From assembly GCF_044324785.1 (NCBI RefSeq), contig NZ_CP172127.1: a stretch of DNA of 64,000 nt; one strand, 5' to 3'. The first letter of the stretch is position 1; each line of letters starts with the position of its first letter. Positions 35,317-37,820 of the stretch are shown piece by piece. The position numbers and the translations under genes were made by a program. This DNA comes from Escherichia coli (GTDB lineage: Bacteria > Pseudomonadota > Gammaproteobacteria > Enterobacterales > Enterobacteriaceae). Below the pieces are notes generated by a model. The model had not been told where the DNA came from. It searched no databases and saw only the letters and a program-made list of their open reading frames with translations.

Positions 35317-36122
35317 TGGAACGCTACGAATCTCTGTTTGCCCAGTTGAAGGAGCGCAAAGAAGGCGCATTCGTTCCTTTCGTCACGCTCGGGGATCCAG
35401 GCATTGAGCTGTCATTGAAAATTATCGATACGCTAATTGAAGCCGGTGCTGACGCGCTGGAGTTAGGCATCCCCTTCTCCGACCCACTGGCAGATGGCCC
35501 GACGATTCAAAACGCCACACTGCGTGCCTTTGCGGCAGGTGTGACCCCGGCGCAGTGCTTTGAGATGCTGGCACTCATTCGCCAGAAGCACCCGACCATT
35601 CCGATCGGCCTTTTGATGTATGCCAACCTGGTGTTTAACAAAGGCATTGATGAGTTTTATGCCCAGTGCGAGAAAGTCGGCGTCGATTCGGTGCTGGTTG
35701 CCGATGTGCCAGTGGAAGAGTCCGCGCCCTTCCGCCAGGCCGCGTTGCGTCATAATGTCGCACCTATCTTTATTTGCCCGCCGAATGCCGACGATGATTT
35801 GCTGCGCCAGATAGCCTCCTACGGCCGTGGATACACCTATTTATTGTCACGTGCGGGCGTGACCGGTGCAGAAAACCGCGCCGCGTTACCCCTCAATCAT
35901 CTGGTCACGAAGCTGAAAGAATACAATGCTGCGCCTCCATTGCAGGGATTTGGGATTTCCTCCCCGGATCAGGTAAAAGCAGCGATTGATGCAGGAGCTG
36001 CGGGCGCGATTTCTGGTTCGGCCATCGTTAAAATCATCGAGCAACATATTAATGAGCCAGAGAAAATGCTGGCGGCACTGAAAGCTTTTGTACAACCGAT
36101 GAAAGCGGCGACGCGCAGTTAA
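35316..36122 (+). CDS. trpA: tryptophan synthase alpha chain
   Basis: 268-aa [60 protein letters not shown]...; overlaps trpB stop by 1 nt. Confidence 0.97.
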
Positions 36123-36128
36123 TCCCAC

Positions 36129-36156
36129 AGCCGCCAGTTCCGCTGGCGGCATTTTA
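36129..36156 (+). terminator. trp operon terminator (trp t)
   Basis: gccgccag-ttccg-ctggcggc followed by atttt. Confidence 0.7.
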
Positions 36157-36502
36157 ACTTTCGTTAACGAAGCCGGAAAAATCCTAAATTCATTTATTAT
36201 TTATCTTTTTACCGTTTCGCTTACCCCTGTCGAACGTCAACTTACGTCATTTTTCCGCCCAACAGTAATATAATCAAACAAATTAATCCCGCAACATAAC
36301 ACCAGTAAGATCAATAATTTTCTCTAAGTCACTTATTCCTCAGGCAATTGCTAATACATCCAGAACGTTTCTCAAAATATATTTTTCCACTTTCTTCTCG
36401 TTACGCTTAATTTGACTAATTTTCATTAGTGACTAATTTTAATGAGTGTCGACACACAACACTCATATTAATGAAACAATGCAACGCAACGGGAGAAATA
36501 AC

Positions 36503-36682
36503 ATGGCCGAACATCGTGGTGGTTCAGGAAATTTCGCCGAAGACCGTGAAAAGGCATCCGACGCTGGCCGTAAAGGCGGTCAGCATAGCGGCGGTAATTT
36601 TAAAAATGATCCGCAACGCGCATCCGAAGCGGGTAAAAAAGGCGGTCAACAAAGCGGTGGTAATAAATCAGGAAAATCCTGA
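36503..36682 (+). CDS. yciG: small stress-induced protein YciG with repeated KKGGQ-SGGN motifs
   Basis: ORF 36446..36682 trimmed to MAEHRGGSGNFAEDREKASDAGRKGGQHSGGNFKNDPQRASEAGKKGGQQSGGNKSGKS. Confidence 0.8.
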   Translation: MAEHRGGSGNFAEDREKASDAGRKGGQHSGGNFKNDPQRASEAGKKGGQQSGGNKSGKS

Positions 36683-36767
36683 TTCACCGTTAATTATTAA
36701 TATCAGCTGATAAAGATAATTGCATCTGCGGGCCGTATGGCTCGCAGTGATTTCACTGGAGAAAAAT

Positions 36768-37268
36768 ATGAATATGAAGACCATTGAAGATGTATTTAAT
36801 CACCTGCTTTCAGATACCTACAGCGCAGAAAAACAATTAACCCGGGCACTGGCAAAACTCGCAAGAGCAACATCAAATGAAAAATTAAGTCAGGCTTTTC
36901 ATGCGCACCTCGAGGAAACTCATGGACAGATTGAACGTATTGATCAAGTTGTGGAATCCGAATCGAACCTGAAAATTAAGCGCATGAAATGTGTGGCAAT
37001 GGAAGGTCTCATTGAAGAAGCTAATGAGGTCATCGAAAGCACCGAGAAAAACGAAGTGCGTGATGCCGCACTGATTGCCGCTGCACAGAAAGTCGAGCAC
37101 TATGAGATCGCCAGTTACGGGACATTAGCGACGCTGGCTGAACAATTAGGTTACCGTAAAGCAGCGAAGCTTCTGAAAGAAACTCTTGAAGAAGAAAAGG
37201 CCACCGACATCAAACTGACTGATCTGGCCCTTAATAACGTAAATAAGAAAGCCGAAAATAAAGCCTGA
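36768..37268 (+). CDS. yciF: YciF (DUF892, ferritin-like stress protein)
   Basis: ORF 36720..37268 trimmed to MNMKTIEDVFNHLLSDTYSAEKQL... Confidence 0.85.
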   Translation: MNMKTIEDVFNHLLSDTYSAEKQLTRALAKLARATSNEKLSQAFHAHLEETHGQIERIDQVVESESNLKIKRMKCVAMEGLIEEANEVIESTEKNEVRDAALIAAAQKVEHYEIASYGTLATLAEQLGYRKAAKLLKETLEEEKATDIKLTDLALNNVNKKAENKA

Positions 37269-37313: not shown

Positions 37314-37820
37314 ATGAATCGTATTGAACATTATCATGACTGGTTACGTGACGCCCACGCAATGGAAAAGCAAGCCGAATCTATGCTTGAATCCATGGCT
37401 AGTCGTATAGATAATTATCCTGAACTACGCGCTCGTATTGAACAACATCTTAGTGAAACCAAAAACCAGATTGTTCAACTGGAAACTATTCTTGATCGTA
37501 ATGACATTTCACGTTCAGTCATTAAAGATTCCATGAGTAAAATGGCTGCGCTTGGGCAGTCAATCGGTGGTATATTCCCTTCTGATGAAATAGTCAAAGG
37601 CTCTATTAGCGGATATGTCTTCGAGCAATTTGAAATCGCCTGTTACACCTCACTATTAGCAACAGCAAAAAATGCCGGTGATACAGCTTCAATTCCAACC
37701 ATCGAAGCGATTTTAAATGAGGAAAAAGAAATGGCCGACTGGCTGATTCAGCATATTCCGCAAACAACTGAGAAATTTTTAATTCGCTCTGAAACTGATG
37801 GCGTAGAAGCGAAGAAATAA
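37314..37820 (+). CDS. yciE: YciE (DUF892, ferritin-like stress protein)
   Basis: 168-aa ORF, paralogous in appearance to yciF. Confidence 0.85.
   Translation: MNRIEHYHDWLRDAHAMEKQAESMLESMASRIDNYPELRARIEQHLSETKNQIVQLETILDRNDISRSVIKDSMSKMAALGQSIGGIFPSDEIVKGSISGYVFEQFEIACYTSLLATAKNAGDTASIPTIEAILNEEKEMADWLIQHIPQTTEKFLIRSETDGVEAKK

Follow-up and report, generated by a model that had tools for sequence, protein, structure and literature searches.

Operator-like repeats upstream of yciG in Escherichia coli very likely form the yciGFE core promoter and its start site

The DNA at positions 36411-36470 of the window, i.e., of the whole 64,000-nucleotide stretch of Escherichia coli sequence analyzed here, very likely makes up the core promoter of the yciGFE operon, of the sigma-S type, together with its start site. 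The positions and the conservation of its elements come from the present analysis, the start sites have been published, and the sigma-S dependence of the operon is taken from the literature; from these we infer that sigma-S recognizes exactly these bases. The segment carries a direct repeat and palindromes close to yciG, and in the initial annotation this arrangement was held to resemble the binding site of a regulator. It is best described as an ordinary, already known RpoS-dependent promoter and not as a new operator, with the exact repeat being an accident of a rare allele, superimposed on the -35 and -10 elements.

In the proposed mechanism, RNA polymerase holoenzyme, mainly with sigma-S (RpoS), would recognize TTGACT (36412-36417) as the -35 element and, after a 16-nt spacer, the extended -10 element C-TAATTT-TAA (36433-36442). 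Transcription would then begin from G36446-G36448 and produce a leader of 55-57 nt ahead of the yciG ATG, with the palindrome GTGTCGACAC serving as the start site and the initial transcribed sequence. According to the literature, H-NS and StpA would silence this promoter and the surrounding AT-rich DNA, on which McbR/YncC would work as an activator or antisilencer. The promoter reading leaves room for a regulator with contacts to these bases as well.

Genomic context

The feature belongs to the trpB-trpA / yciG-yciF-yciE / ompW region of E. coli and lies in the 380-bp spacer between trpA and yciG. The coordinates of the three yci genes follow the RefSeq annotation of identical or near-identical loci.

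36122: end of trpA
36130-36150: trpA terminator
36503-36682, plus strand: yciG coding sequence, 59 amino acids, a KGG-repeat general stress protein
36768 (ATG) to 37268 (stop), plus strand: yciF, after yciG
37314-37820, plus strand: yciE, after yciF

The trpA-yciG spacer has a GC content of 36%, compared with 49% for the whole window, and the yciGFE block ranges from 33 to 48% compared with about 55% in trpBA. Both the spacer upstream of yciG and the operon itself are AT-rich relative to the genome, as are regions of the H-NS-silenced type. Among 5426 complete E. coli genomes, 100% identity over the spacer (36123-36505) was found only with E. coli N3 (CP031609). The remaining genomes are at most 97.4% identical over the same interval, most E. 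coli falling at 95-97%, and 691 of them have no match to it at all. A search of 36000-36800 against Rfam at a permissive threshold found no known RNA family, the sole match being a subthreshold hit to sroD on the trpA terminator (E = 0.096).

Several other features of the locus were seen along the way. A perfect 12-bp palindrome, TTCGTTAACGAA, lies at 36160-36171 directly after the trpA terminator and is imperfect in K-12 (TTCTTTAATGAA); at the head of the spacer, Enterobacter species have CTTCGTAACGAAG and many genera have AAGCGAAGCG. In strain Nissle 1917 the DNA from 36478 to about 36797 is deleted, which removes yciG completely, together with about 11 codons from the start of yciF, and joins the intact yciG promoter to a truncated yciF. 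Strain 536, which belongs to phylogroup B2 as does Nissle 1917, retains yciG.

Reported regulation of yciGFE

The promoter of yciGFE(katN), pyciG, and a YncC site were reportedly mapped by Beraud et al. in 2010. The literature describes yciG as RpoS-dependent in both E. coli and Salmonella. According to secondary sources that cite Beraud et al. 2010 (PMID 20713450), McbR/YncC, which is a GntR/VanR protein, binds the yciG promoter and activates yciGFE, and the operon is repressed or silenced by H-NS/StpA. The view of this DNA as a control region for stress-induced genes to which proteins bind is therefore borne out, through secondary sources, for McbR/YncC and H-NS; the accompanying view of the repeats as operator half-sites is not. 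In Salmonella, effects on yciG linked to PhoB, OmpR, and RcsB have been reported, as has a putative Pho box at -154.5. The RcsB-box 14-mer quoted for Salmonella yciG was not found in the printed promoter sequence of Salmonella 14028s.

The core promoter and its start site

When checked against the window sequence, the repeat, the palindrome, and the arms were all found where the initial annotation had placed them. The direct repeat TGACTAATTTT occurs twice, 17 bp apart from start to start, and is followed by the perfect 10-bp palindrome; the whole feature lies 33-92 bp 5' of the yciG ATG, inside the spacer of 36% GC. The outer inverted repeat is also real, with arms slightly better than had been described (8 bp each, around a 9-nt loop). 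The direct repeat can be widened to a 17-bp tandem, TGACTAATTTTCATTAG / TGACTAATTTTAATGAG, with 15 of 17 positions identical. Set against the promoter elements, the features are as follows.

36412-36417, plus strand: -35 hexamer TTGACT, invariant in 11 E. coli strains, with TTGAC(T/G) spaced 16 nt ahead of the hexamer at -10 in 53 of 57 upstream regions
36413-36423, plus strand: first copy of the direct repeat TGACTAATTTT, consisting of bases 2-6 of the -35 hexamer and the first six spacer bases
36415-36420 and 36425-36430: ACTAAT and ATTAGT, a small inverted repeat in the promoter spacer of E. coli
36418-36432, plus strand: promoter spacer, poorly conserved and the site of substitutions within E. 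coli
36430-36440, plus strand: second copy of the direct repeat TGACTAATTTT, consisting of the last spacer bases, the C at -13, the -10 hexamer, and the next base
36433-36442, plus strand: extended -10 element C-TAATTT-TAA, with the C at -13 at 36433, the hexamer at 36434-36439, and TAA at 36440-36442
36442-36466, no strand: outer inverted repeat ATGAGTGT-N9-ACACTCAT, with arms at 36442-36449 and 36459-36466
36446-36448, plus strand: transcription start cluster, with G36448 as the K-12 start and G36446 as the aligned Salmonella start
36446-36455, no strand: palindrome GTGTCGACAC, spanning the start site and the first transcribed bases
36448-36502, plus strand: yciG 5' untranslated region of 55-57 nt, with the Shine-Dalgarno sequence GGAG at 36492-36495 and two copies of GCAAC at 36481-36490

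Promoters used by sigma-S are marked by a C at -13 and by TAA after the hexamer, and their consensus is approximately KCTAYRCTTAA, which we take C-TAATTT-TAA to match. The hexamer TAATTT has the A at -11 and the T at -7, and a TAnnnT is found at the orthologous position in 53-56 of 57 upstream regions. The C at -13 is present and invariant in 11 E. coli strains, TAA occupies -6 to -4, and the published starts (36448, and 36446 by alignment with Salmonella) fall within the 5-9 nt past the hexamer that is typical of this class. A generic sigma-70 scan of 36050-36800 returned no promoter, its threshold being too strict for TAATTT, which matches TATAAT at three of six positions. It is usual for the -10 element of a sigma-S promoter to fall below the threshold of a sigma-70 scan.

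Published start sites place the beginning of transcription inside the palindrome. For K-12, the yciG start is given as 1314114 on the minus strand with a 55-nt 5' untranslated region and two reads (Kim et al. 2012, PMC3415461, Table S1). The 51-mer from the same work ends in ...TAATGAGTG (...CGACTAATTTTAATGAGTG), which puts the K-12 start at G36448 of the window, 9 nt past the hexamer and thus toward the upper limit of normal distances. That there were only two reads fits the poor expression of the H-NS-silenced yciGFE operon in K-12. The promoter of Salmonella 14028s is printed with an experimentally inferred start as ...ctaattttaataggGtgtcgacac (...ttgactaatcggtttaaccaactaattttaataggGtgtcgacac...) (supplement of PMC10715179); this start is the G that opens GTGTCGACAC, and it aligns with 36446. 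The start in strain SL1344, at 1782355 and about 55 nt before the ATG (PMC7913699), lies within 1 nt of the one in 14028s. It follows from these data that the palindrome begins at the start site.

The leader has features of its own. The Shine-Dalgarno block GGAGAAATAA is kept in Salmonella, Citrobacter, and Kosakonia, and the GCAAC repeat (36481-36490) varies in length, with two copies here and five in strain WP2-W18-ESBL-08. In strain STIN_95 an IS1 element is inserted at 36448/36449, exactly at the yciG start and between promoter and leader, and presumably uncouples yciGFE from its own promoter. The start-site G at 36446 is also the first base of a GTG in frame with yciG, which opens a 78-amino-acid reading frame (36446-36682). 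This is not a conserved longer protein, because the frame is lost in Salmonella, where the leader is 56 nt.

Conservation across enterobacterial genera

Comparative sequences were gathered from loci containing yciE, with one genome per species; yciG and yciF were located in each, and the 170 nt upstream of each yciG were taken. The resulting 57 upstream regions represent about 20 genera of enterobacteria, including Citrobacter, Enterobacter, Klebsiella, Salmonella, Leclercia, Lelliottia, Trabulsiella, Kosakonia, Phytobacter, and Pantoea. The pattern TT[GT]A[ACT]N-N15-C-TAnnnT is present in 53 of the 57 regions, where shuffled sequences would lead one to expect 0.46, and CTAnnnTT[AGT][AGT] is present in 56, compared with an expected 8.4. 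The conserved layout is a TTGAC(T) -35 element, a 16-nt spacer that includes the C at -13, a -10 hexamer of the form TAnnnT, and then TAA, and the distance from -35 to -10 is invariant in the multigenus set. High information content is confined to the promoter elements and drops to near zero upstream of the -35 element and in the spacer. Conservation also extends to bases outside the pattern used as an anchor: among the 52 unique orthologous promoters, position -6 is T in all 52, position -5 is A in 48, and TTGAC has its G in 51.

The same picture is obtained from the pairwise comparison of K-12 with Salmonella, where identity occurs as islands at the -35 element (12/12), at the -10 element (12/12), and over +1 to +10, with diverged sequence between them (4 of 11 positions identical in the promoter spacer). 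An alternative placement of the -10 element at CATATT (36463-36468), which would leave the palindrome in the promoter spacer, was rejected by the multigenus comparison and the published start sites.

The palindrome as a possible operator

Chance expectations for the repeats and palindromes were obtained from 2000 dinucleotide-preserving shuffles of the 380-bp spacer. GTGTCGACAC is surpassed in length by another perfect palindrome, the 12-bp AAAATATATTTT (36374-36385), which is the longest of the spacer; a palindrome of that length is reached in 14% of shuffles, so the 10-bp palindrome is unremarkable when taken alone.

The operators of GntR/FadR-family regulators are short palindromes built on GT-Nx-AC. 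The TGTCGACA inside the palindrome has a GT-N2-AC dyad and conforms to this general form, a likeness that is formal only, and a GntR-family protein has been reported to bind the yciG promoter region. The palindrome (core T-GT-CG-AC-A) might thus be both the start site and an operator at +1 to +10 for a dimeric regulator, e.g., the GntR/FadR-type McbR/YncC, although judged on its sequence this seems rather unlikely. The strongest point in its favor is that all ten bases are identical in Escherichia, Salmonella, and Intestinirhabdus even though the flanks have diverged; that identity could equally stem from constraints on the start site and the initial transcribed sequence. An operator would be expected to keep its symmetry in orthologous promoters, and here the dyad is kept only in the same three genera. 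The left half is changed in Citrobacter (GGTGACGACAAC, GGTACCGACACC), Enterobacter (GAACGACAAC), Klebsiella, and Kosakonia, and it is the right half alone, CGAC(A/G), that persists in other genera (GAACGACAAC, GGTGACGACAAC, CACCGACGACAT). Even within E. coli, O157:H7 EDL933 has GTATCGACAC in place of GTGTCGACAC. Position is a further difficulty since a repressor would fit at +1 to +10 better than McbR, which is reported to activate yciGFE.

The longer palindrome AAAATATATTTT lies about 65 bp 5' of the start site and is conserved in most of the E. coli strains examined. A motif derived from McbR ChIP-seq includes ATATAT (a 2026 paper). When the K-12 mcbA (ybiM) promoter was compared with pyciG for a shared McbR motif, only the 9-mer AAAATATAT was common to both; it lies upstream of pyciG, and such a match is at chance level for AT-rich spacers. 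From sequence considerations, AAAATATATTTT may be a real McbR site, though this is a weak lead.

The direct repeat and its rare allele

The repeats had been taken as half-sites for an unnamed regulator. Seen from the core promoter, one copy is the -35 element plus spacer and the other is the C at -13 with the -10 hexamer, and across about 20 genera it is only the positions contacted by RNA polymerase that are conserved, not the repeat as such. By coincidence, the -35 box with the bases that follow it (TTGACT+AAT) and the surroundings of the -10 element (GAC+TAAT) have GACTAAT in common. This gives rise to the direct repeat, whose 17-bp period is the -35 to -10 distance.

The exact form of the repeat is peculiar to a rare allele. 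The 66-mer of the window is found exactly in 23 of 5426 complete E. coli genomes, compared with 3267 for the K-12 version, and its carriers are strain N3 and mainly porcine ETEC/O139 strains. In K-12 the corresponding sequences are TGACTAATTCT... and CGACTAATTTT, which have only the 8-bp GACTAATT in common, a match at chance level. The window allele has T at 36422-36423 and T at 36430, so the sequence next to the -35 element equals that next to the -10 element over 11 bp; two spacer substitutions in the rare allele thus lengthened the match.

Within the species, an alignment of 11 E. coli strains finds the -35 hexamer with the following AAT, the A at -14, the C at -13, TAATTT, and TAATGAG all unchanged. 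The substitutions that affect the repeat fall entirely at spacer positions and never in the hexamers. At 36421-36423 the strains have TTT, TTC, TCC, or TAC; at 36427-36429 some of them carry TAC, TAA, or TTG instead of TAG; at 36430, T is exclusive to the rare allele of the window, most E. coli having C; and 36431 is G or A. Substitutions confined to the spacer are the pattern predicted for a promoter and not the one predicted for two equivalent operator half-sites.

It has also to be considered that the TGACTAATTTT copies, or the series CTAAT/ATTAG/CTAAT (36416-36420, 36425-36429, and 36433-36437), are iterated sites for a transcription factor, McbR/YncC or another, that sits on the core promoter and controls yciGFE. 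Only 0.8% of shuffles contain an exact direct repeat of 11 bp or more at an offset of 5-40, which makes the repeat in the window allele significant; McbR is reported to bind the yciG promoter; and the spacer contains ACTAAT-N4-ATTAGT, with CTATC-N4-GATAG at the same place in Citrobacter. This account nonetheless appears quite improbable. The significant repeat is limited to the 23 genomes with the rare allele, while the 8 bp of the common allele turn up in 31% of shuffles, and E. coli strains vary at those repeat positions that lie outside the hexamers. Iterated operators would be expected to be conserved as repeats, and in this case K-12 shares 8 bp and other genera only GACT(A), with conservation across genera limited to polymerase-contact positions. 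The 17-bp period is that of promoter spacing and not a helical repeat, and the K-12 mcbA promoter, the other reported target of McbR, lacks a similar string.

Sites for response regulators of the OmpR/PhoB family consist of 6-7 bp direct repeats every 10-11 bp. The resemblance lies in the two direct repeats upstream of a stress gene, yciG, for which PhoB-, OmpR-, and RcsB-dependent effects are reported in Salmonella; in contrast, the yciG repeat has a period of 17 bp and not 10-11 bp, and no match to a Pho, OmpR, or RcsB box was found.

The substitutions of the rare allele could have a consequence for the promoter itself. Through the C-to-T change at 36422, the first copy of the repeat could amount to a second complete extended -10 element (C at 36416, TAATTT at 36417-36422, T at 36423), at a place where K-12 has TAATTC and so lacks the essential T at -7. 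It is doubtful, though conceivable, that this duplicated extended -10 would let sigma-S initiate at a second point near 36429-36431, about 17 nt further upstream. If it did, the transcript would include the whole ATGAGTGT/ACACTCAT hairpin, and the N3-type lineage would differ from other E. coli in possessing a tandem promoter and a structured leader.

The leader also contains the 14-mer ACTAATTTTAATGA a third time, at 86% identity, as ACTCATATTAATGA at 36461-36474, 29 bp 3' of the second copy. It includes CATATT, a possible weak -10 element, is not conserved in Salmonella, and has no reported start downstream.

Inverted repeats in the leader

An RNA stem-loop formed by ATGAGTGT-N9-ACACTCAT at the 5' end of the yciG mRNA, which would stabilize the message or modulate its translation as other 5' hairpins of stress mRNAs do, is very unlikely in E. 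coli and was rejected because the 5' arm is located across the start site or upstream of it and the leader has no significant fold. The isolated 29-mer does fold to -8.9 kcal/mol (z = -3.1), and many other genera have a hairpin of 6-11 bp early in the yciG leader. However, both mapped starts (36446 and 36448) are inside the 5' arm (36442-36449), so the complete stem is not transcribed at the extreme 5' end and at most GUGU/ACAC can pair; the fold of the RNA from start site to ATG is no more stable than that of shuffled sequences (-3.7 kcal/mol, z = +0.9); Salmonella lacks the outer arms; an 8-bp stem is found in 13% of shuffles of the spacer; and the hairpins of the other genera lie elsewhere, at +12 to +36.

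Those hairpins of 6-11 bp, at about +12 to +36 of the yciG 5' untranslated region, are present in Enterobacter, Klebsiella, the Citrobacter freundii group, Leclercia, Kosakonia, and Trabulsiella. Their stems vary by genus (GATACG/CGTATC, ACGACAT/ATGTCGT, ATGATATGCA/TGCATGTCAT), and the conserved GAACGACAAC precedes them. In the GATACG group the hairpin is mostly conserved in sequence and covariation is weak, with two of six pairs changed on both sides and several G-U pairs, a pattern compatible with a role as either RNA or DNA. They are not positionally homologous to the inverted repeat of E. coli, and E. coli, Salmonella, and the C. amalonaticus group have no early-leader hairpin.

Conclusions

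The sequence in the window agrees with sigma-S extended -10 promoters in having a C at -13, an A at -11, a T at -7, TAA after the hexamer, a good -35 element at 16 nt, and starts 7-9 nt past the hexamer, and it occupies the same locus as the published promoter. That promoter, pyciG, is described in the literature as RpoS-dependent, H-NS-silenced, and modulated by McbR/YncC. In nothing essential does the window differ from it; what sets the window apart is the rare allele (T at 36422-36423 and T at 36430).

The case carries a caution for the reading of short repeats: a significant direct repeat beside a palindrome looked like an operator, yet it is the -35 and -10 elements and the start site of a known promoter. 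The usefulness of the result is limited to work on the regulation of yciGFE by RpoS, H-NS, and McbR. For that work, the comparative set offers a clean picture of pyciG in about 20 genera, with invariant spacing, an invariant C at -13, and TAA after the hexamer, and it singles out the block from +1 to +10, GTGTCGACAC in Escherichia and Salmonella and CGAC(A/G) elsewhere, as a conserved element of the promoter region.
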